Origin: a virus
Taxonomy: Duplodnaviria; Caudoviricetes
Reading direction: 5' to 3' (one strand)
IMG/VR virus record: IMGVR_UViG_3300009008_000039
Coordinates: 1 to 60,785 of that record
DNA length: 60,785 bases
The position numbers were made by a program, and so were the translations under genes. The notes under the pieces were generated by a model. That model made no database searches. It was not told where the DNA came from and worked only from the letters and a program-made list of their open reading frames with translations. This document shows, piece by piece, positions 7,868 through 41,939 of the stretch. How positions within the stretch are numbered: the stretch's first letter is position 1; the number at the start of each line of letters is the position of its first letter.

Positions 7868-7909
7868 GTATTAATTAGACTCTTCCTTTCTCGCAAGCAT
7901 GAAAATATT

Positions 7910-7987
7910 TGGTAGACCGACTGGGAGTCGAACCCAGAACCAAGGGTTTATGAGACCCCTACTCTAACCTGATTGAGCTATCGGTCC
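7910..7987 (-). tRNA. tRNA-Ile2 (anticodon CAU, lysidine substrate)
   Basis: Cloverleaf GGACCGA/UCGGUCU acceptor stem, GGGGU-CU CAU AA-ACCCU, UUCGA T-loop, ACCA end; C4-G69 and C5-G68 TilS determinants; abuts tilS. Confidence 0.85.
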
Positions 7988-24213: not shown

Positions 24214-27200
24214 TTATCCTAATAATTTAAATGTGTGTCTAATGGATCTAGTACTAAATCCCCAATCTTCGCTATAATCTAGCTTAGCCGCGTATGGCCT
24301 GTTGAGGTGGATGCTGTCTCCGTCTCGTACTCCCCAACACTTAATAGCCGCCTGGGCGCTACCATCGTCGATTACCTTGACAATCCAATAAGGTTTGCCA
24401 TTTTTTGTTATCTTGGGAATTATTTCCCTGGGGATGAACCATGCTACGCCTAGATCGTTGTCCCACGAACCAATTGCTGGAACTGCGTATTTCTCAATCG
24501 ATTCCCTGATCGCCTTTGTCATAACGAGATCGAATGGGAAAATACCAGTCAATGTCGAAACATGCTCAATCTTGTCCTCGATAGTGAAATCATGCTCGTC
24601 GCAATATGTTTTAATGTTCTCTAGTAATTTCTTTTTATTCTTTGGCCTATCCTGGATGCAGGTCATCCAAAAGTGTTTGCAGCCATTAAAACGTTCGTCG
24701 ATCAGTGTATCCAAAGCGCCGGATCGGCAGAGGACGTCAAGAGACTTCTTGTTGAGTTTTGAATAAACAATTTCCTCGCTAAACAACATCTCTTCGACAG
24801 TGTTAAATGGCCTGTTGGCGGTGATCTGTTCAATAGCCTTGTCACCTAAGCCCTTGATGGAGTTGAGCGGCTGAATCAGCGTCTTACCATCGGATGCAAT
24901 CTCCCACTGGGTTGTCGACGTGTTGATGTTGATATTCTCGATGTTAAAGCCATGCTTTTGAGCCAGGCTTATTGCTGCCTCTTTGCGCGCCTCGGGCTCC
25001 TTATCAAGGAACGCTGCCATCCAACACTCAGGATAGTAGTTTAGTAGCCAGGCGCACTGATAAGAGAGTATGCTATAAGAAACAGCGTGAGACTTATTAA
25101 AGCCATAGCCAGAGAAATACTCGAACGTCTGCCAGATTGTTCCTGCCGCAACCTCCTCAACACCCTTCTCCTTGCAGCCCTCGATAAACTTCTTTCTAAT
25201 TTTGTTCTTCTGGTTTTCAACTTCACCGGTACCCTTTTTAGTAAGTAGTTTCCTGAGCTTATTACCTTCTTCTAGAGTGATGTCTTTTCCGAGCCGGTGG
25301 GCAAGGAGGGCGATCTGCTCCTGAAAGATCAAGAACCCAGCAGTCTCCTTTGTGATCTCTTCTATCGTATCATTCAGATACTGAATATTCTTGGAATCAT
25401 TCTTAGCTTTGATGTACGACTTATCAACTCCGGCACTCAAAGGGCCTGGGCGATAAATACTGGTGATAGCAGAAATGTCAATGATATCACGAGGTTTTGC
25501 GCGCATAGCTAGTTTTTGAGCACCTGCGTTTGTAAACTGGAATATTCCAGCAAACTTGCCACGATGAAAGATATTTCTATAAACTTTCTGATCGTGGAGG
25601 TCTAGCGCCTCGGGATGCAAAGTTGAATCGTAATATTCTTTAATCTCTTCAAACGTCGGGTTTTCAATACCGTGGTGGCGCTTCAAAATATGCCCCACAG
25701 CAGATTGAATCATCTCCAGAGTCGAAAGTCCAAGAATATCAAACTTAATAAACCCAAGTGGCTCAAGATGTCGGACGTGCATGCCTTCAGACCAGGGGGT
25801 CTGTACAACACCACCGGAGCTAATCAACGGCATGTGCTTGTCCAAATTGTCGCCAATAACAACTCCGCCGGCGTGTCTAGATGTGCTTCTCACTTGTCCA
25901 ACAAGAGCTTCAACGTGAGTCTTGATGTGCGGATATTTTCGAAGGAATTTATTGAGTGACTCTGAATATTCCATCACCTCTTCGAAGGTAGGAGCATATA
26001 CGCCGGCCTTGATTCCGTGCTTCATCTTGGCTTTGGGCGTCGCCTCTTTAACCATGCGACTAGTCACAGGATTGACTTCCGTAAACGGCACCCCATAGAA
26101 CTTACTAATGTCTTTAATCAGCGATCGCAACTGTAGGGTGTTGTAATTAGAGATTGGTACAACTGTTGTCTCTCCCCATTCTTTTGCCAGGATCTCCTTT
26201 AGGCCGAAAGCGTCAGAAACATCATAATCAATATCTGGGTAATCTGTTGCATCCGAACGAAGGAAGCGACTAAATAGCAAACCATACTTAATTGGGTCAA
26301 CCTGGGTGATGCCAAGAACATAAGACACCAGAGAGCCGGCAGCACTTCCGCGTCCGGGGCCGGCCAACATGTGTTCATTGGCCTTGTCGGAGACAGCCTT
26401 CATAGTGAGGAAATACTTACTGAATCCTCGATTGTTGATGACTTGAAGTTCGTGCTTCAGGCGCTCGACATACTCGTCGTCTTCATGCAGGTTCATTTTT
26501 CTTAACGCTGCAATGCTTTCTTTCACGAGTGTCTGTTCGGCGGTGTGTCCGTCTGGTACAACAAAATCGGGCAAGCGAACCGTATCATCGGGCATAAAGT
26601 CCTCTACTAGTTCATACGCGATCTCGTGGGTCTTTACAATTGTATCGTGAATCATATCGTCATCGTATTCAATTCCGCATTCGGCGGAATACTTTTTGTA
26701 CGACTCCCACATTTGATCACCGTTTTTAGGATACAGTTCATATCCAATCTCTTCTACTCCATCAGGAAGCTCAGATGTCAGCCACTCTGGCTGATTCGAT
26801 TTGCCAAGCCAGCCAAGACGCTTGTAAAGCTCGCGGTCATTCCAAGCTTCAGGAGTTGGATAGTGGCTATCAGCCGTCGAAATCATCTCAATTCCGAACT
26901 CTTCGTGCATCTGAATTACGTATTTGTTAAGCGCGTGTTGTTCTGGAACATTATTCCATTGCAGCTCTCCGTACCATCGATCGCCTATCGCATCGCGCAT
27001 TCTGCGCGTAGTGGTGCGCATCGCATCCAATATCGCCTCTTCGCCTGCTTCTCGGTTGTCCCAAAAGTCACCAGCGTACACACCACCAAGACATGCAGAC
27101 GAAGCTATTACACCTTCGCCATACTTCTTGAGCATTTCGTAATCCAGTCGTGGATAGCGATAGAAGTTGTCTCCCTGGTGGGAGTCAGAAACAATCTTAT

Positions 27201-27645
27201 AAATGTTGTTTAGTCCAGTTTGGTTAAGGGCAACCAATACGATGTGACGTCTGGCGGCGATCTTATTCTTAGATGCGCGCTTCGATGCGTCTTCATCTTC
27301 AGTGGACACCTTATCTGTGTCAGCAATAACCTTCTTGGCGTTCTTTTTGTCTTCTTTAACTCTTTCGTATTCCTCTTTCCATTCTTTAACAGACGGTACA
27401 AAATAGGCCTCGACGCCAAAAATAGGCTTAAATTCTTTGCCTTCTTTTTGCATCTTCCTTGCGTGGAGGATCTGATAAGAAGCGCCATTCATGTTTCCGT
27501 GGTCAGTCAACGCCAGCGCGTTCATGCCATTTTGATAGGCGAAGTCCATGTGGTCTTGTGGGTACCCAAAGCCGTCAAACACCGAGCCGGCTACGCTATG
27601 AGCGTGGAGGCCCACAAACGGTATACTAGATTCTGATCGTTCCAT
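24214..27645 (-). CDS. dnaE: DNA polymerase III alpha subunit (family C)
   Basis: PHP LHAHS/LTDHG/GVEAY, GRGSAAGSL, PDIDYD, HAGGVV, KFDILGL, YGFNKSHA. Confidence 0.97.
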   Translation of the reverse strand: MERSESSIPFVGLHAHSVAGSVFDGFGYPQDHMDFAYQNGMNALALTDHGNMNGASYQILHARKMQKEGKEFKPIFGVEAYFVPSVKEWKEEYERVKEDKKNAKKVIADTDKVSTEDEDASKRASKNKIAARRHIVLVALNQTGLNNIYKIVSDSHQGDNFYRYPRLDYEMLKKYGEGVIASSACLGGVYAGDFWDNREAGEEAILDAMRTTTRRMRDAIGDRWYGELQWNNVPEQHALNKYVIQMHEEFGIEMISTADSHYPTPEAWNDRELYKRLGWLGKSNQPEWLTSELPDGVEEIGYELYPKNGDQMWESYKKYSAECGIEYDDDMIHDTIVKTHEIAYELVEDFMPDDTVRLPDFVVPDGHTAEQTLVKESIAALRKMNLHEDDEYVERLKHELQVINNRGFSKYFLTMKAVSDKANEHMLAGPGRGSAAGSLVSYVLGITQVDPIKYGLLFSRFLRSDATDYPDIDYDVSDAFGLKEILAKEWGETTVVPISNYNTLQLRSLIKDISKFYGVPFTEVNPVTSRMVKEATPKAKMKHGIKAGVYAPTFEEVMEYSESLNKFLRKYPHIKTHVEALVGQVRSTSRHAGGVVIGDNLDKHMPLISSGGVVQTPWSEGMHVRHLEPLGFIKFDILGLSTLEMIQSAVGHILKRHHGIENPTFEEIKEYYDSTLHPEALDLHDQKVYRNIFHRGKFAGIFQFTNAGAQKLAMRAKPRDIIDISAITSIYRPGPLSAGVDKSYIKAKNDSKNIQYLNDTIEEITKETAGFLIFQEQIALLAHRLGKDITLEEGNKLRKLLTKKGTGEVENQKNKIRKKFIEGCKEKGVEEVAAGTIWQTFEYFSGYGFNKSHAVSYSILSYQCAWLLNYYPECWMAAFLDKEPEARKEAAISLAQKHGFNIENININTSTTQWEIASDGKTLIQPLNSIKGLGDKAIEQITANRPFNTVEEMLFSEEIVYSKLNKKSLDVLCRSGALDTLIDERFNGCKHFWMTCIQDRPKNKKKLLENIKTYCDEHDFTIEDKIEHVSTLTGIFPFDLVMTKAIRESIEKYAVPAIGSWDNDLGVAWFIPREIIPKITKNGKPYWIVKVIDDGSAQAAIKCWGVRDGDSIHLNRPYAAKLDYSEDWGFSTRSIRHTFKLLG

Positions 27646-36044: not shown

Positions 36045-37172
36045 TCACTCAATATCGTAATAATCTTCAGCTTTTCCTTGTTTTTTCTCAAAACGCAAAA
36101 TAAGCTCTTCGTCCATTATCTGTAGCACTCTATTGCGGAAGTTCTCATTTTGCAAACGTTCTTTCCATTTAGTTGCTTGAAACTTCTCTGTAGTGCCGTC
36201 TTCATGTGTTAGCTCATACCAAGCACCAGATTGAGACACTGATTCTGACATCTTAATTGCCTCGAACCAACTCTCCTCGTCTTGGATTGTCACATCTCCA
36301 CCCCACAAGATCTTAAATGTACATTGGCGTCCTTGCGTGCCAAACCTACTCTTCTTAAGGGTAACTTTCACCTCAGATCCGATGCGGAAGCCATTGTCAT
36401 CTACAACAAATGATGCCTTAGATTTTCTTGATGTAAGCCACATTCTTAACGAATACGTGTATGGCAGCGATTTTCCGCCAGGTGTAAAATAGGGCGTTGT
36501 CATCGCTTCCGCGACGTTGTTAGTGATGTTAGTTTTTAGTTGGTTCAACACCAACAAGGTAGATTGTGTGTTCGCAATGGGCTGTGTCAATTTTTGCACA
36601 CCCTTTGACAAAATTCTAGGCTTCACGGCCATTGAGGACTGTGGGTTGAAATCTCCTGCAATATCAGTCTCGCAAGGCGTTTGAGCAACTGAATCCCAAA
36701 TAAACAACATAGAATTCGTATTTGTGCCCAGCATCTCTTCTATCGTTTCAAGCACAGTCTCGACACTGTGCGCCTGCATGTACATAAACCAGCCATGGCC
36801 ACTTGGAGGGTCATCTCCCAAACAGCAACCAACACCCTCCAAGAAGCTGCTATCAATGGCTGATTCTGCATCAAAATATACGACGTCGATTCCCATCTTC
36901 TGGGCGTTGGCTGCGATCTGTGCGGCCATGTATGATTTGCCGGTACTCTCAAGGCCAGCTAATTCCACTACCTTCCCTACCGGGACACCGCCTCGTTTGC
37001 CTTTACAGATGATGTTATCCAGCCATCTTGAGCCAGTCGGGATCCAACGACGCACATCAGTCGGATTATCCTCAGAAAGAGAAAAAGCCATCTCTGTTCC
37101 TGCTTTCTTGTTAATCAGGTCCCTCATCTCCTTGAGATTGAGTCTTCCTAGCTTTTTCGCTTTCTTCGCCAT
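36045..37172 (-). CDS. recA: RecA/UvsX recombinase
   Basis: IPTGS, GLESTGKS, DAESAID, IWDSVA, LNQLK, TPGG. Confidence 0.93.
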   Translation of the reverse strand: MAKKAKKLGRLNLKEMRDLINKKAGTEMAFSLSEDNPTDVRRWIPTGSRWLDNIICKGKRGGVPVGKVVELAGLESTGKSYMAAQIAANAQKMGIDVVYFDAESAIDSSFLEGVGCCLGDDPPSGHGWFMYMQAHSVETVLETIEEMLGTNTNSMLFIWDSVAQTPCETDIAGDFNPQSSMAVKPRILSKGVQKLTQPIANTQSTLLVLNQLKTNITNNVAEAMTTPYFTPGGKSLPYTYSLRMWLTSRKSKASFVVDDNGFRIGSEVKVTLKKSRFGTQGRQCTFKILWGGDVTIQDEESWFEAIKMSESVSQSGAWYELTHEDGTTEKFQATKWKERLQNENFRNRVLQIMDEELILRFEKKQGKAEDYYDIE

Positions 37173-37197
37173 AATAATTCCTCGTATGTATGTTAAT

Positions 37198-37230
37198 GAG
37201 GCACCTGTAATCCCGTGCCTCCCTGCGGAT
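37198..37230 (-). ncRNA. Structured intergenic RNA motif, copy A
   Basis: AU-CCGCAGG-GAGGCAC-GGGAUUACAG-GUGCCUC; second copy at 37731-37762 with covarying stem. Confidence 0.6.
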
Positions 37231-37237
37231 GGGAGAC

Positions 37238-37696
37238 TTACTCCACTGTTACTGTGCCGATGTCAGTCTCTACAGTAACATTCCATCCATAGAATATACC
37301 AGAACACGCAGACAGTATATCGCCAACAGTTGTTGGTACATTTGCTTCCAATGTCAAATAGCCGCGCTTGTAATCATACATCTCTGTGTGGTGCTCAATA
37401 AACTCCATGTCATAGAAGTTTTCTGTCAAGACATCAGCGACAAATGTATCAAATCCTGAGTAATCTCTCGGGTACTCCTCCAGATAGTCGCTCTCACGCA
37501 ACTCATCAATTACCTCGTTTTTAAACGTAGGGTCAGTCACCAGTGTTGCAACATGCTCTGCTATGCCTGTCTCTTGTAGGGCCATATCCACATAATCATC
37601 GTGTACATGTACAACGTCAGTGCCAGATGAGTGCTTCAAAACAACCTGCGTATCGGCAGGCAAATTCATTTTTCGCAATTTATCTTCAAATGTCAT
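37238..37696 (-). CDS. Acidic hypothetical protein flanked by the twin RNA motifs
   Basis: 152-aa ORF, AAGGGA SD. Confidence 0.7.
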   Translation of the reverse strand: MTFEDKLRKMNLPADTQVVLKHSSGTDVVHVHDDYVDMALQETGIAEHVATLVTDPTFKNEVIDELRESDYLEEYPRDYSGFDTFVADVLTENFYDMEFIEHHTEMYDYKRGYLTLEANVPTTVGDILSACSGIFYGWNVTVETDIGTVTVE

Positions 37697-37730
37697 TTTT
37701 TTCCCTTTAAAGTTGTATTGAAGTAAAAAT

Positions 37731-37762
37731 AAGGCCCCTGTGCCCCGGGCCTTCCTGCGGGA
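37731..37762 (-). ncRNA. Structured intergenic RNA motif, copy B
   Basis: UC-CCGCAGG-AAGGCCC-GGGGCACAG-GGGCCUU-AUUUUU. Confidence 0.6.
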
Positions 37763-37766
37763 TCAA

Positions 37767-38516
37767 CTAAGAGGCTAGAAGCTCCTCGAAAGCACGATCA
37801 ACGGAATTAGTGGGGGACTCCGCGTTGTACTTTGTTGACTCAGACGAAACGTCCTCTGCATCGTCTTCCCCCAGTAGGAACTCATCAAGCATGGCTTGAA
37901 TCTCCTCCGGAGTCTTACGTGCAGATTCAAAAACCTCAGAAAAGTCTGGAATAGCTTCCAGAAGATCTGCGGTCTCCATTTCACCCGCAGCCGGCGAGGG
38001 CTTACGTCGGGGCGTAATGGTGGTTTGAGGGAACTGCGCCCCGACAGGCTTGCCATAGTTGATGACTAGATCCGTACCTTCGTTGACATCAGTGATATCT
38101 CCGTACTCAGGATTGAGAACTAGGTTCAAGAGGTCCTTATAGGCCATCTTGCCGTAGCCCCAAAGACGCACACCCTTGTCCTCCTCGCCCCTAACAATAA
38201 CAGGGGAGAAGAAGCGCTGGCGCGCGCTAAGGTTCTTGGCCATCTTAACACTCTCCTCGCTCCGCTCATTGTAGAGCTGGCGAATGAAGTCGTTAAGAGG
38301 ATCCTCCTCGCCGAAGTTCTTCTTCGGGCTAAGGAACCCAGGATTCTTTCCTAGGTTATAGTGGAACCAGTACTCCTTAAACGGGTCACCGTCTGATGTC
38401 GGAAGGAGACGAATTGTGGTTTCTCCGTCTTCCGGTCGCCAAAAGATGCTCGGACCGTTTCCACGATTTTCTAGAGCATCGCGTTTTGCTTTCATTTTTT
38501 CTAAATCAATTCCCAT
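37767..38516 (-). CDS. Single-stranded DNA-binding protein (T4 gp32-like)
   Basis: FWRP..G...IRLLP, WFHY, V..W.YGK, YGDITD..EG.D, acidic tail ending AFEELLAS. Confidence 0.8.
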   Translation of the reverse strand: MGIDLEKMKAKRDALENRGNGPSIFWRPEDGETTIRLLPTSDGDPFKEYWFHYNLGKNPGFLSPKKNFGEEDPLNDFIRQLYNERSEESVKMAKNLSARQRFFSPVIVRGEEDKGVRLWGYGKMAYKDLLNLVLNPEYGDITDVNEGTDLVINYGKPVGAQFPQTTITPRRKPSPAAGEMETADLLEAIPDFSEVFESARKTPEEIQAMLDEFLLGEDDAEDVSSESTKYNAESPTNSVDRAFEELLAS

Positions 38517-38533
38517 AACTTTTTCTCCTTGTG

Positions 38534-38570
38534 CATTAAGCTATAGTACGGTCAGCTAATGTTCCGACCG
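38534..38570 (-). promoter_or_regulatory. H-type pseudoknot in ssb leader (gene-32-like translational operator candidate)
   Basis: S1 CGGUCGG/CUGACCG, S2 CAUUAG/UUAAUG, ending 3 nt before AAGGAG. Confidence 0.6.
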
Positions 38571-38579
38571 CCTAAGAAT

Positions 38580-38607
38580 AAGATAACAACATTTTTCTAA
38601 AAGTTAA
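38580..38607 (-). promoter_or_regulatory. Sigma70-type promoter for ssb operon
   Basis: TTAACT-N16-TATCTT. Confidence 0.45.
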
Positions 38608-39437
38608 ATCTTTTCTTCCTGTACAAAAGAAGCATAGTGTATTGTGTACGCATAATCTTGTTCATAAGATGTTGAATATATAGCGAAACACGTGCTACAC
38701 TCCTCTGTTGATCTTTCTTTAAGATAGGATCTTATTTCTGTGAGTAAACTCTTTTTTTCATTTAATGTATTTTCTGATATTCCGAAAAAATATTTTTTTA
38801 AGCGCGGAAAGCGTAAATCGTAAAATGGCTTCTCATCAAGATTCTCAACGGCTACGACACCGAGTGTGCAGATCCTACTTGTTGTGCCAGGTGACGAAAG
38901 CGTACTCAACAAAGGCTCTGTGTTGTTGAAGATATTAATCATGTGATGTGTGCTGGCTATGACGTTGTTTATTTCGTCCCAATAAGACGCTATAGATATG
39001 TCGCCCACGACACCCTCAATGAGTGCGTTGTCTACTATGATCATATTGGCTAACTTACCAGATCTTGCATACTGTTGCAATACGCCGAATACTATCTTCT
39101 CTTGCATCACCACTTCTTTAGGGGACGTCGACAAATCTGGCTTTATATACATCACTGTCATCTCGCGAGTCTTTAACTGCTCTAACAGGCGCAAAATAAT
39201 CCCTGAAATCTTACTTGCTCCGGAGAGGATCAACGTCGTGTGTTCCTTATTTATCAACCTAGTGTTTATCTTCTTATAGTTTGCCTCATACTCCTCGTGG
39301 CTGGATTGTGGCTCAACCTTGAAGAGCTTTCTATAATTGTTGTCGTCTGTGTCGACAGAAAATACCTTATATTGGGGCATTTTTTCGAACTTGGCCGCCA
39401 CGGCGCATCCTGCTTGCCCTACACCGATTATATTCAT
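38604..39437 (-). CDS. Degenerate tubulin/FtsZ-superfamily protein
   Basis: IIGVGQAGCAVA (T1), SVDTD (T2), IIVDN; GGGTG signature replaced by SGASKISG. Confidence 0.65.
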   Translation of the reverse strand: MNIIGVGQAGCAVAAKFEKMPQYKVFSVDTDDNNYRKLFKVEPQSSHEEYEANYKKINTRLINKEHTTLILSGASKISGIILRLLEQLKTREMTVMYIKPDLSTSPKEVVMQEKIVFGVLQQYARSGKLANMIIVDNALIEGVVGDISIASYWDEINNVIASTHHMINIFNNTEPLLSTLSSPGTTSRICTLGVVAVENLDEKPFYDLRFPRLKKYFFGISENTLNEKKSLLTEIRSYLKERSTEECSTCFAIYSTSYEQDYAYTIHYASFVQEEKI

Positions 39438-40609
39438 TTTATCTTTCTCATGTTGCCAAAATCTTTGCCCATGCTAAGATTCGTTCTTAATTGACCAAAC
39501 CTAGTATCAGCGAATTCACTGATCAGGTGGCGTAACGTGTCCTTATCCTCGTGTGACATATCAACAACAACGCTATCATGGATGCAAAAACTGATATATG
39601 ACCTCTTCCCAGCCAATATTTTATCAAGTTTCATCGCCGCTGTTAACAGCATATCGCTCGAAGTGCTCTGTACCAGATAGTTGACAGCCTTGTCTTTATC
39701 AACAGGAATCGTTCGACCATACGGGGTCGTAACATGATTGCCGTCATAAAAGCGCTCATAAAGTTCATCGCGGTTTAGGTGTTTATTTAGCTTCTTATTC
39801 TTTGCATTGGGGTTGTAGAGCCATGAAAACACCTTCTTTTTTGTTTTTTCTCGATCAAGCTTGCCGTCAAATATGTTTTCATTGATCCAAACATGAAAAT
39901 CTTCTTTCGGCTGTTCTTGGCCTAAGAGACCCATAAGAACTCTCAATTCTGCAGAGTTAAAGTCCAGCTCAACAAAAAGATCGTTTTGCGGCTTTATTAT
40001 ACTTCGCAAGTCCTTACTTAGAGTGAGTATTGGAAAGCTACTTTTGTCAGTTGTAAGCCGACCTGTCACTGTCTTCCATGGATTATAGATAACATGGCGT
40101 TTTGTGACATCCACCTTGTTAAGGCCCACTTTCGTTTCGTCGCTCGTGGAATCAATCGCGGATATATCTATATTAACGGGTTTTGTTTCTATTTTCTTAA
40201 GAAAAAACACCAATTCTCTCAAAAAATCATAATTTTCGGGTCTTTTGTGGTTTTCGAAGACTGATTTTGTTATCTCGGTCTTAACCTCACAAAAGTCCAA
40301 TAAAAACTTCTCCGGGACGAGATCATAAAAACACACCTCGTCCAGATTAATTCTTGCATTGCGGAATGTACGTAAGAAAGTCTTTGCTCTCTTTTCAACA
40401 TGCTTTAGTCTATTCTGGTACTCTTCAGGACACGCGTCGGAAAGAGTCTTCCCTTGACACCAAATTTGGGCATATTCGACGTCCTTGTCTTCAAGATGCA
40501 TAGCCGGGGCCCATGTGTGAGTGCACAAATCATTGTGAGCGTCAATTAGCTCTCCGTTACAATATATTTTATAGCACTCCCTCTTGTTGTCCAACGACTG
40601 AAATATCAA
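39434..40609 (-). CDS. Compact family-A DNA polymerase-like protein
   Basis: TVTGRL, LDFNSAELRVL (motif A), R.KTK...F..LY (motif B), NYLVQSTSSD, IHDS (motif C). Confidence 0.85.
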   Translation of the reverse strand: MIFQSLDNKRECYKIYCNGELIDAHNDLCTHTWAPAMHLEDKDVEYAQIWCQGKTLSDACPEEYQNRLKHVEKRAKTFLRTFRNARINLDEVCFYDLVPEKFLLDFCEVKTEITKSVFENHKRPENYDFLRELVFFLKKIETKPVNIDISAIDSTSDETKVGLNKVDVTKRHVIYNPWKTVTGRLTTDKSSFPILTLSKDLRSIIKPQNDLFVELDFNSAELRVLMGLLGQEQPKEDFHVWINENIFDGKLDREKTKKKVFSWLYNPNAKNKKLNKHLNRDELYERFYDGNHVTTPYGRTIPVDKDKAVNYLVQSTSSDMLLTAAMKLDKILAGKRSYISFCIHDSVVVDMSHEDKDTLRHLISEFADTRFGQLRTNLSMGKDFGNMRKIK

Positions 40610-40616
40610 ATTTTCC

Positions 40617-41939
40617 TCATTTTATATTTTTTGTTGATGTAAGGGGGTAATCAACATTCAAGGGATTAATCGCGTTCTCTAAGCTGCGAGGCGCCCTTTT
40701 TTGATACTCTGCATCAGAGATACCATGCCAATAGTCACCTTTGTTAACAAAAGTAGTAACGGGAAGCCCTCTTGTCAACTCATTGACTCGTTTTATTCCA
40801 GCACTAAGGCTGAATATTCGCGACAGCCGTATAGTCTCCGTTGCGATTGCGGTGAAGTCATGTGGTGTGGTTTTTTGGCCGGTCTCTGCCAACCTCATTT
40901 TCAAGAGAACCTTAAGCCAATACTCGTTCTCCTCCGCAGTGTCTTGTATCGCAGGAGTTGGCTCTCGGTCTCTACGTATGCTCTTTACGCGCAGATCATA
41001 AGAATCTTGGTTTTCTGTGCACTTTATATAAGTTGGCGTCTCGTATGTACTAAACTGTAGATAGAATTGCTCGTAGAAAGAATATAGTTTATTTCTTACA
41101 TTAATGAGATCGTCTAGATATGATTTACGATAATATGTTTTAAACAAATTATCATAATTAACTGCAAAGTTGTCCATGTATTTTTGGGCGCCTGTGAGGG
41201 AGCCACTACCCCTCTTGTCCTCTAGGCCGGAGGCTACATTGTAGACTATGCGCCAGGGGGCGTTTTTATCAACCATAAAGCCGAACTTCTTGACTTCATT
41301 AACAAAAAACGTAAAATTGACGTCGTTTACGTATTTGAGGATATTAACATTATTCTCCACACCATGATTTTCTGGTGCGATCTCAAGCATCAAACCCGAT
41401 ATAAAAGGGGAGCAGTGATTTGATAAAATATATCCAGTCCGTGTAAAGGGAAAATATTTGGCTGTCCTCAAGAAGAAACGCAGGAACTCTTTTGTAAAGT
41501 CTTTAAAGTTCTTAATTCTTGAAGACCGGTGATCAATAGACAAATAAGAGTCAACAAAGGTGGTATATAACTTGTTTAGATAGTGGTTATAGCTGAATTC
41601 TAAGTCGCCAGTCGTCCAGGATTTCGCCACTCTAAGTTTTGATGGATAAGCCGATTCTCTGGAGATATAGCCCTTCTCTGCTGCTGATTTAATATTCCTC
41701 TGCAAGTCAGAAAAGGCCGAAGCGACAAAGTCAACAGCTAGCTGGTGGGCGCCCGTCAGAGAATCAACTTGGTCCAAATTGCTCTCATCCAAATAGATCG
41801 CATCGCCCTGCTTGTCTATTCTTCCGTATAAGAGATGTTTTTTTTCTAAGTCAAAAGTCTTAACTCCCGGAAATTGTGGATAAAAATCACTTAAGTTCTT
41901 CTTAGAGTTAAATATTGTTTCAACTACGTTCTGAGCCAC
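40617..41939 (-). CDS. Hypothetical protein, end of baseplate cluster
   Basis: 440-aa ORF tightly coupled to baseplate genes. Confidence 0.6.
   Translation of the reverse strand: MAQNVVETIFNSKKNLSDFYPQFPGVKTFDLEKKHLLYGRIDKQGDAIYLDESNLDQVDSLTGAHQLAVDFVASAFSDLQRNIKSAAEKGYISRESAYPSKLRVAKSWTTGDLEFSYNHYLNKLYTTFVDSYLSIDHRSSRIKNFKDFTKEFLRFFLRTAKYFPFTRTGYILSNHCSPFISGLMLEIAPENHGVENNVNILKYVNDVNFTFFVNEVKKFGFMVDKNAPWRIVYNVASGLEDKRGSGSLTGAQKYMDNFAVNYDNLFKTYYRKSYLDDLINVRNKLYSFYEQFYLQFSTYETPTYIKCTENQDSYDLRVKSIRRDREPTPAIQDTAEENEYWLKVLLKMRLAETGQKTTPHDFTAIATETIRLSRIFSLSAGIKRVNELTRGLPVTTFVNKGDYWHGISDAEYQKRAPRSLENAINPLNVDYPLTSTKNIK

Follow-up and report, generated by a model that had tools for sequence, protein, structure and literature searches.

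The window analysed here, the whole 60,785-base IMG/VR virus record IMGVR_UViG_3300009008_000039, comes from an uncultured myovirus and carries two copies of a compact RNA motif in the gaps between three consecutive minus-strand genes, which encode a gp32-type single-stranded-DNA-binding protein (SSB), a protein called ORF152, and a RecA/UvsX-type recombinase. The motif is an H-type pseudoknot, and covariation among its relatives confirms both helices. It is absent from Rfam and is widespread in uncultured marine phages; its anchoring to the upstream stop codon points to a function at the gene end, which is the explanation that we tentatively favor.

The pseudoknot and its covariation

The two gaps have a common layout, which reads on the mRNA strand: stop codon, spacer, NCC, GCAGG, a 7-nt arm, G, GGN, (U)UACAG or CACAG, the complementary arm, and then A and a U-rich tail (Table 1). 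The arms form helix 2, and NCC pairs with GGN of the hairpin loop to form the 3-bp helix 1, whose variable pair (first base of NCC with third base of GGN) is C-G in copy A, between gp32 and ORF152, and U-A in copy B, between ORF152 and the recombinase gene. A sequence-only reading of the window had placed two copies on the mRNA strand 6 and 9 nt from a stop codon (counted to CCGCAGG), and its coordinates agree with ours; the arms that it described (AAGGCCC/GGGCCUU and GAGGCAC/GUGCCUC) do differ in sequence and yet pair fully. In all, copies A and B differ at three stem positions, one helix-1 pair and loop 3. RNAfold recovers helix 2 in the centroid structure of copy A and in both the minimum-free-energy and centroid structures of copy B. 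The string GCAGG-N7-GGG-N1-6-ACAG occurs twice in the window against 0.02 expected occurrences (two or more were found in none of 100 shuffles); CCGCAGG alone occurs three times against 4.6 expected, which is not significant. A scan of the whole window, with filters off, by a covariance model built from relatives gave 60.0 and 46.6 bits for the two copies and 7.7 bits for the next match.

Relatives of the SSB are encoded in 195 IMG/VR stretches, of which the best 80 loci (65–82% identity) were used. A loose regular expression found 100 motif copies there, all on the SSB strand, and these together with the window's two comprise 83 distinct sequences (alignment A1). In this alignment 99.2% of cells pair, and the covariation score is 0.436, compared with 0.201 ± 0.011 after shuffling (0 of 500 shuffles as high); sliding the partners relative to one another lowers pairing to 23–56%. 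A second alignment behaves similarly (98.9% of cells pair; covariation 0.358 vs. 0.166 shuffled, again 0 of 500 as high). The pattern that selected A1 fixed CAGG, both loop ends, and a stem of at least 6/7 pairs, so those columns are invariant partly by construction. IMG/VR was also scanned with a less biased pattern, in which no bases were fixed except the GGC core and the conserved single-stranded ones, and this gave at least 133 matches in at least 119 new loci. Among the 133 matches listed, the stem is paired at 7/7 positions in 127, at 6/7 in five and at 3/7 in one; 125 have standard pairing at the free helix-1 pair, and 127 lie in loci that also encode a gp32 or UvsX relative. The same pattern applied as a control to bacterial and archaeal genomes gave only three stems of 6/7 or better among the 120 matches listed, compared with 132 of the 133 viral ones, and one of these three (L240) resembles a true phage copy. 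L240 is a contig in a metagenome-assembled genome (MAG) labeled Halobacteriovorax; it carries a full motif copy at 7904–7963 on the minus strand (55.1 bits), the next open reading frame (ORF) resembles one from phage gp32-uvsX intervals, and the gp32-like gene of the MAG lies on another stretch that has no motif. It is probably a phage contig within a bacterial bin.

A covariance model of the hairpin alone (R1) matched 111 times in 79 loci fetched by the pattern and 118 times in 80 loci fetched by SSB. The covariance-model search of related phages that the sequence-only reading had proposed thus added 229 copies, and with the window's two there are 231 copies with 105 distinct cores. Helix 2 is paired at all seven positions in 98 of these cores, at six in six and at five in one; four of its seven pairs alternate between two Watson-Crick types by double changes, and its central pairs (G-C, G-C/U and C-G) are fixed, with an invariant GGC/GCC core. 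The variable pair of helix 1 is AU in 47 cores, CG in 34, GC in eight, UG in five, GU in two, UA in two and a non-pair in seven, so that all four Watson-Crick types are present. An otherwise invariant C-G pair of helix 1 is replaced by G-C in a divergent copy (GGC with GCU) in a complete 181-kb relative. Positions 21 (the first base of GCAGG) and 33 (the junction G) also covary (GG 83, AA 13, AG 6, other 3), which suggests a purine-purine contact that extends helix 1. The family consensus is about 32 nt long, NCC-GCAGG-[7-bp helix]-G-GGN-(U)UACAG-[helix'], and is followed by A and a U-rich, G-poor tail. The earlier claims of a real, covarying structured RNA with conserved loops, and of a pseudoknot between the 5' NCC and the loop GGN, are both borne out, the pseudoknot by covariation in the relatives.

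Several variants were seen. One sub-type has ACAGG for GCAGG, A for the junction G and a 7-nt loop 3, UUAUCAG (examples are L096:2213–2274 and 2492–2553, L117:2236–2297, L115:1969–2030 and L132:250–311), and it coexists with the canonical type within the same genomes. In other copies loop 3 has an insertion of 25–30 nt, which in several is a small hairpin, and the loop end is UAAUAG; helix 1, loop 1 and helix 2 are retained (L138:2290–2374, L116:7502–7586, L104:4411–4494, L135:1739–1822, L102:1571–1654 and G003:C1:152023–152114). In the first five of these loci the long loop-3 form lies directly 3' of gp32, and uvsX is preceded by a copy of the canonical form. The spacer between the stop codon and helix 1 is rich in C in roughly half of the copies (CCCCC, CCUCC or CCCUC; window positions 37230–37237; A1 columns 10–17). 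As an alternative helix, or as the third strand of a triplex on the helix-2 purine run, this spacer gave a weak own-partner signal (3.02 vs. 2.93 permuted, with 6 of 300 permutations as high, and 2.78 vs. 2.69).

The motif matches no Rfam family. Rfam 15 (4227 models, riboswitches included) at its gathering thresholds finds only six tRNAs in the whole window, and at E ≤ 10 on positions 37100–37850 it finds only a chance match to mir-132 (37247–37280, E 3.8) outside the motif; the statement in the sequence-only reading that the element could not be assigned to a known family therefore stands. Cultured phages yielded no blastn match to the 2.6-kb region, and a 42-nt motif query gave only 17–22-nt chance matches (E = 8). 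By gp32, the nearest cultured relatives are Flavobacterium phage vB_FspM_immuto (37% identity) and Microcystis phage Mel-JY01 (32%). Their loci (MW353176.1 1–5612 and PP395634.1 51308–57045, respectively) share the order SSB, RecA, 5'-3' exonuclease, DnaB helicase; the gaps between gp32 and the recombinase gene are 2 and 8 nt, and the covariance model found nothing convincing there (best 15.5 bits, antisense). Full-text searches of the literature turned up no description of the element; the supplementary lists of a survey whose 10,006 structured-RNA candidates from IMG/VR include 12 upstream of GP32 may contain it (PMC10690425). The same paper notes that the T4 gene 32 pseudoknot is not modeled in Rfam.

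Strand, genomic location and distance to the stop codon

All 225 model matches that can be oriented are on the gene strand; four more lie in loci without gp32 or uvsX. One helix-2 pair is G-U in 33 of the 105 cores, where the opposite strand would have a C-A mismatch, and this together with the one-strand orientation argues that the motif is a structured RNA on the sense strand. Location was counted in 121 non-redundant loci that have both gp32 and uvsX. Half of these were fetched via the motif, and their flanks extend only a few kb; within them, all 177 copies are inside the gp32-to-uvsX interval (93.6 kb summed) and none is in the other 704 kb. One copy is present in 65 of the loci, two in 41 and three in ten, so that 116 have at least one; a copy lies directly 3' of gp32 in 78 and directly before uvsX in 34. 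The interval itself is hypervariable, with 0–3 motif copies, lengths of 52–2806 bp and dozens of gene families, and the gp32 proteins of motif-bearing phages are 40–82% identical to that of the window. Five relatives of 113–186 kb carry one to three strong copies each, ten in total at 38 bits or more, and two of the ten fall elsewhere than in the interval: one follows an AAA-ATPase-like gene, and the other stands between a nucleotidyltransferase-like gene and a tRNA that comes just after it.

Of 191 distinct copies, 153 begin helix 1 within 5–11 nt of the stop codon upstream, most often at 7 nt. Spacing to the following start codon varies more (mostly 10–42 nt, up to about 197 nt), and the spacing to the stop codon is retained where the next gene is distant or is a tRNA. 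The genes upstream of the motif fall into 37 clusters (gp32 is 79 of 188) and those downstream into 39 (uvsX 38 of 185, the ORF152 family 24, a small membrane protein 20). Further neighbors, from a scan of nine representative proteins, are FKBP-type isomerases, Hc1 histone-like proteins and lipoproteins; in that scan the membrane-protein neighbors matched no transporter family.

In the tail that follows helix 2, A is at +1 in 75% of copies, U makes up 55–78% of bases at +3 to +7, and G is at most 3% at +2 to +8; at least four U are present in the first eight tail nucleotides in 131 of 183 copies. Five of the 121 loci have no motif. Between gp32 and uvsX, four of them carry instead GC-rich hairpins that pass directly into a run of U, and in the fifth (L052) hairpin and U run are separated by AA.

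Metagenome contigs also single out the motif. In four contig sets from marine, estuary and sediment samples, summed contig depth rises from below 10 to 47–479 exactly over copy B (37197–37230), and many contigs align to 37197–37229/30 only (32–33 bases) and then diverge on both sides, which argues that the core of copy B is common to many different phages in a single sample. The joints in these four DNA contig sets are contigs of other phages, and no same-strain deletion of ORF152 was seen in them.

ORF152 and the surrounding genes

Table 1. Genes and motif parts at the SSB-recombinase locus of the window
Feature	Positions	Strand	Details
gp32-type single-stranded-DNA-binding protein gene	37767..38516	-	249 aa; PF08804 E 4.9e-13; phrog_1192 E 5.7e-26
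gp32 stop codon	37769-37767	-	TAG
Copy A spacer after gp32 stop			5 nt
Copy A, H-type pseudoknot	37731..37761	-	covariance-model match 46.6 bits
Copy A 5' strand	37761-37759	-	CCC
Copy A loop 1	37758-37754	-	GCAGG
Copy A helix-2 5' arm	37753-37747	-	AAGGCCC
Copy A junction	37746	-	G
Copy A GGN	37745-37743	-	GGG
Copy A loop 3	37742-37738	-	CACAG
Copy A helix-2 3' arm	37737-37731	-	GGGCCUU
Copy A helix 1 pairs			C37761-G37743, C37760-G37744, C37759-G37745
Copy A tail	37721..37730	-	AUUUUUACUU (A, then U run)
ORF152	37238..37696	-	152 aa; no Pfam or PHROG match
ORF152 stop codon	37240-37238	-	TAA
Copy B spacer after ORF152 stop			8 nt
Copy B, H-type pseudoknot	37198..37229	-	covariance-model match 60.0 bits
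Copy B 5' strand	37229-37227	-	UCC
Copy B loop 1	37226-37222	-	GCAGG
Copy B helix-2 5' arm	37221-37215	-	GAGGCAC
Copy B junction	37214	-	G
Copy B GGN	37213-37211	-	GGA
Copy B loop 3	37210-37205	-	UUACAG
Copy B helix-2 3' arm	37204-37198	-	GUGCCUC
Copy B helix 1 pairs			U37229-A37211, C37228-G37212, C37227-G37213
RecA/UvsX-type recombinase gene	36045..37172	-	375 aa; PF00154 E 1.3e-29; phrog_97 UvsX-like E 8.4e-51

ORF152, which lies between the two copies, has homologs in 40 of 159 loci when the fetched loci are searched with tblastn (29–53% identity); a peptide-word search had found none, which marks the limit of its sensitivity. The family is about 152–172 amino acids long (e.g., L013:3764–4219, L031:3805–4260 and L008:3828–4301), and an alignment of 20 sequences has nine invariant positions. 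The AlphaFold model of ORF152 has a pLDDT of 90 and a pTM of 0.81, and comparison of the model with PDB folds gave no clear match, the best being E 0.18 in Foldseek and Z 4.5 in VIA. Its genomic place makes ORF152 a candidate recombination accessory protein. In all 38 homolog-bearing loci that hold both gp32 and uvsX, the homolog is inside the interval between them. The motif lies upstream of the homolog in 26 of 40 cases and downstream in six, so that usually there is a copy on the upstream side only; the suggestion in the sequence-only reading that the repeats are a recombination handle that brought in ORF152 is not supported by these counts, in which the gene is no single import.

In the window, helix 2 of copy A is 34 nt from the ORF152 start codon and helix 2 of copy B is 25 nt from the RecA/UvsX start codon. 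The SSB gene's own leader (38517–38603, minus strand) contains a different hairpin, CGGUC...GACCG, which is followed by an A/U-rich stretch and a Shine-Dalgarno (SD) sequence; it is possible that this hairpin is an operator or terminator in its own right. Immediately 5' of the SSB gene is a 277-amino-acid ORF (38604–39437, minus strand) with no Pfam or PHROG match, whose glycine-rich N-terminal IGVGQAG we take to be reminiscent of tubulin/FtsZ-type GTPases. Next is a 391-amino-acid ORF (39434–40609, minus strand) whose match to family A DNA polymerase is limited to the C-terminal portion of that family, preceded by a 440-amino-acid ORF (40617–41939, minus strand) that has no family; these two may be a split polymerase. 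A separate 1143-amino-acid DNA polymerase is encoded at 24214–27645 on the minus strand (phrog_405, E 2.9e-225). The completeness of the virus record is about 33% by CheckV. It encodes tail sheath, tube, baseplate and major head proteins, as well as GroEL, ribonucleotide reductase, a DnaB-type helicase, a 5'-3' exonuclease and DNA polymerases, and 76 of its 87 ORFs are on the minus strand.

Possible functions at the gene end

The explanation that we favor, which is tentative and a little short of an even chance, is that the motif acts in cis on the phage mRNA as a gene-end RNA, either terminating transcription leakily, or shielding the 3' end, or both, by which the SSB message would outlast those of the genes downstream. 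We infer a gene-end function because the motif is anchored to the upstream stop codon, has a U-rich tail and a GC-rich helix, and is exchanged for canonical terminators in some relatives. The GC-rich helix 2 and the tail would act as a leaky intrinsic terminator, and, after termination or cleavage within the tail, they might also bar 3'-to-5' exonucleases. In the standard H-type geometry, loop 1 lies in the deep groove of helix 2 and loop 3 lies along helix 1. Here, loop 1 would occupy the deep groove of a helix 2 with three invariant central pairs, loop 3 would run along helix 1, and helix 1 (3 bp and the likely purine-purine pair) with the conserved loops would lock the 9–10-nt hairpin loop into a tight triplex-like fold. 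About 5 nt past the stop codon is the shortest spacing that leaves a downstream structure folded during termination; the fold would begin near this minimum distance at which a terminating ribosome does not unwind it, and little naked RNA would be left between ribosome and knot. The upstream message, most often that of SSB, would accumulate above those of the downstream accessory and recombinase genes, which would have to be expressed by run-through, since the gaps are too short for promoters. This model echoes T4 gene 32, whose mRNA is the most stable T4 message and has a conserved RNase E site adjoining its stop codon that ribosomes are proposed to shield (PMC3014915). As for other RNAs that might protect an end, the motif may be likened to a conserved pseudoknot that could block a processive nuclease: xrRNAs of eukaryotic viruses are small conserved pseudoknotted folds that block the 5'-to-3' nuclease Xrn1.

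Several observations weigh against such a gene-end function. The loops are conserved more strictly than a terminator or an exonuclease block is known to need, and up to three copies in series precede uvsX, so each copy could be only a weak terminator. Fewer than four U are present in the first eight tail nucleotides in 52 of 183 copies, and with A at +1 the U tract is imperfect. In a subclade (L054–L082), a small ORF comes next after gp32 and no motif stands between them. Nor is the motif used after other presumably highly expressed genes, as there are two copies in the window and ten in the five large relatives, and no RNA runs containing the motif sequence were found.

Could the motif be nothing more than an ordinary intrinsic terminator, with the loops and flanks conserved through recent descent or copying and the pseudoknot having no role? 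Like intrinsic terminators and intercistronic stabilizing hairpins, it has a GC-rich 7-bp hairpin with a U-rich tail at a gene end on the sense strand, and canonical terminators take its place in five relatives. Unlike them, it has a loop of 9–10 nt (up to about 40 nt with the inserted hairpin, which is atypical) with near-invariant G, GG and CAG that pairs to the 5' flank, a conserved GCAGG linker and an A at +1 before the U run, and it is confined to one genomic interval rather than spread genome-wide. Moreover, loops and helix 1 are kept at gp32 identities of only 40–82% while helix 2 changes freely, the helix-1 covariation includes a compensated change of an otherwise invariant pair, and well-paired stems are rare among the bacterial-genome matches and the rule among the viral ones. 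This possibility is improbable. The earlier opinion that the element is "not a plain terminator" holds for its anatomy, whereas its position, its tail and its replacement by canonical terminators point to a gene-end role after all.

A more novel possibility, to which we give less weight than to the gene-end function, is that the motif is a sensor: its invariant loops would be read by the phage SSB, which reports free single-stranded DNA, or by a small ligand, a terminating ribosome 5–11 nt upstream would mask helix 1, and the fold would couple SSB translation or availability to run-through, decay or translation of the downstream recombination module. In its specific form as a translational operator, which seems rather unlikely but is a serious rival, free SSB would nucleate at the pseudoknot and spread 3' over the ribosome-binding site of the next gene, so that accessory genes and recombinase are translated only when single-stranded DNA titrates SSB, the logic of T4 gene 32 moved to the 3' side. 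The exclusive association with gp32 (every copy in the 121 loci is in the gp32-uvsX interval, and 78 of these loci have one directly after gp32) and the strict conservation of loops suitable for recognition by a protein favor this idea. Helix and loop lengths of the motif and of the T2 gene 32 structure determined by NMR are different. The T4 gene 32 operator consists of a leader pseudoknot followed by an unstructured A/U-rich tract that extends to the ribosome-binding site (PMC3014915). Like the element of T4, T2 and RB69, the motif is an H-type pseudoknot on the mRNA of a gp32-type SSB, and its G-poor, A/U-rich tail, after which SD sequence and start codon follow 10–42 nt on in most copies, may be the counterpart of that tract. 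That start codon, however, is the next gene's, and some copies have none within about 150–200 nt or lie before a tRNA; the T4 operator belongs to the 5' leader of gene 32 and precedes its start by about 67 nt (PMC3014915), whereas the motif is 3' of the gene, 5–11 nt after the stop codon, is present in multiple copies and also stands behind genes other than gp32. The tight spacing is to the upstream stop and not to the downstream start, the downstream genes are diverse, with uvsX next in only 38 of 185 cases, and the leader of the window's gp32 gene holds a different hairpin.

The small-ligand form of the sensor, in which an aptamer like those of guanidine-III, preQ1 or SAM-II riboswitches would gate run-through or decay between the SSB and recombination genes, is improbable, though we keep it as a serious rival. 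The compact fold, the invariant single-stranded nucleotides and central helix-2 pairs, the tertiary contact suggested by positions 21 and 33, and the fact that the would-be terminator helix belongs to the pseudoknot are in its favor. Guanidine-III (ykkC-III) is itself a small H-type pseudoknot, in which the first loop is rich in purines and the third contains A, a topology like that of the motif, and is located in 5' leaders of guanidine-related transporter or carboxylase genes. The motif, on the other hand, is at 3' gene ends, being anchored to the end of the upstream gene and not to the start of a regulated one, and neither guanidine-III nor any other Rfam riboswitch matches it at E ≤ 10. 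Its neighbors (SSB, UvsX, FKBP, Hc1-like proteins, lipoproteins and membrane proteins) are unrelated to guanidine handling and show no metabolic theme, so the likeness to guanidine-III raised in the sequence-only reading does not extend to membership. There is also no clearly supported mutually exclusive helix, the C-rich spacer giving only the weak signal described above.

Two further explanations leave regulation by a ligand or protein aside. Recoding, in which a pseudoknot past the stop codon would stimulate read-through or frameshifting and so produce C-terminally extended proteins, draws on the H-type fold and on the spacing, as most copies lie at the distance downstream of the decoding site that known stimulators have. 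It was rejected, and we regard it as highly improbable, because an in-frame slippery heptamer is near the stop in only 2 of 175 copies, the phases are used equally (67/62/57), the stops are mixed (TAA 104, TAG 58, TGA 24) and the extensions are short (median 19–21 codons in every frame) and not conserved; in addition, the helix that faces the ribosome, helix 1, is only 3 bp. Alternatively, the repeats might act as DNA, as sites of recombination or cassette boundaries at which the accessory genes of the gp32-uvsX interval are shuffled. The hypervariable interval would suit such sites, copies within a genome can be identical (L027), and many otherwise unrelated contigs share the 32-nt core only. 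The strand-specific G-U pairs and the one-strand orientation point to RNA instead, the window's copies differ from each other in both helices and loop 3, ORF152 homologs are mostly flanked on one side only, and any shuffling may be a by-product of the repeats and not their function. A DNA-level role is very improbable.

Control of a message by its own protein product via an RNA pseudoknot has its textbook case in the phage SSB gp32, and to our knowledge nothing comparable has been characterized outside the T-even phages. The motif described here is a strongly supported structured RNA, uncatalogued in Rfam, that keeps to the boundary between SSB and recombinase genes in a broad group of uncultured marine myoviruses, and its defined 32-nt fold makes it directly testable; as an RNA part it is also compact and portable. 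Should it be a gene-end device, then phages build pseudoknotted, sequence-specific terminators or stabilizers that are anchored to stop codons. If it is instead a sensor, it would be a new regulatory link from replication and recombination status to gene expression; it would mirror, on the 3' side of the gene, the operator by which T4 gene 32 regulates itself, and would represent a new class of RNA switches anchored to stop codons.

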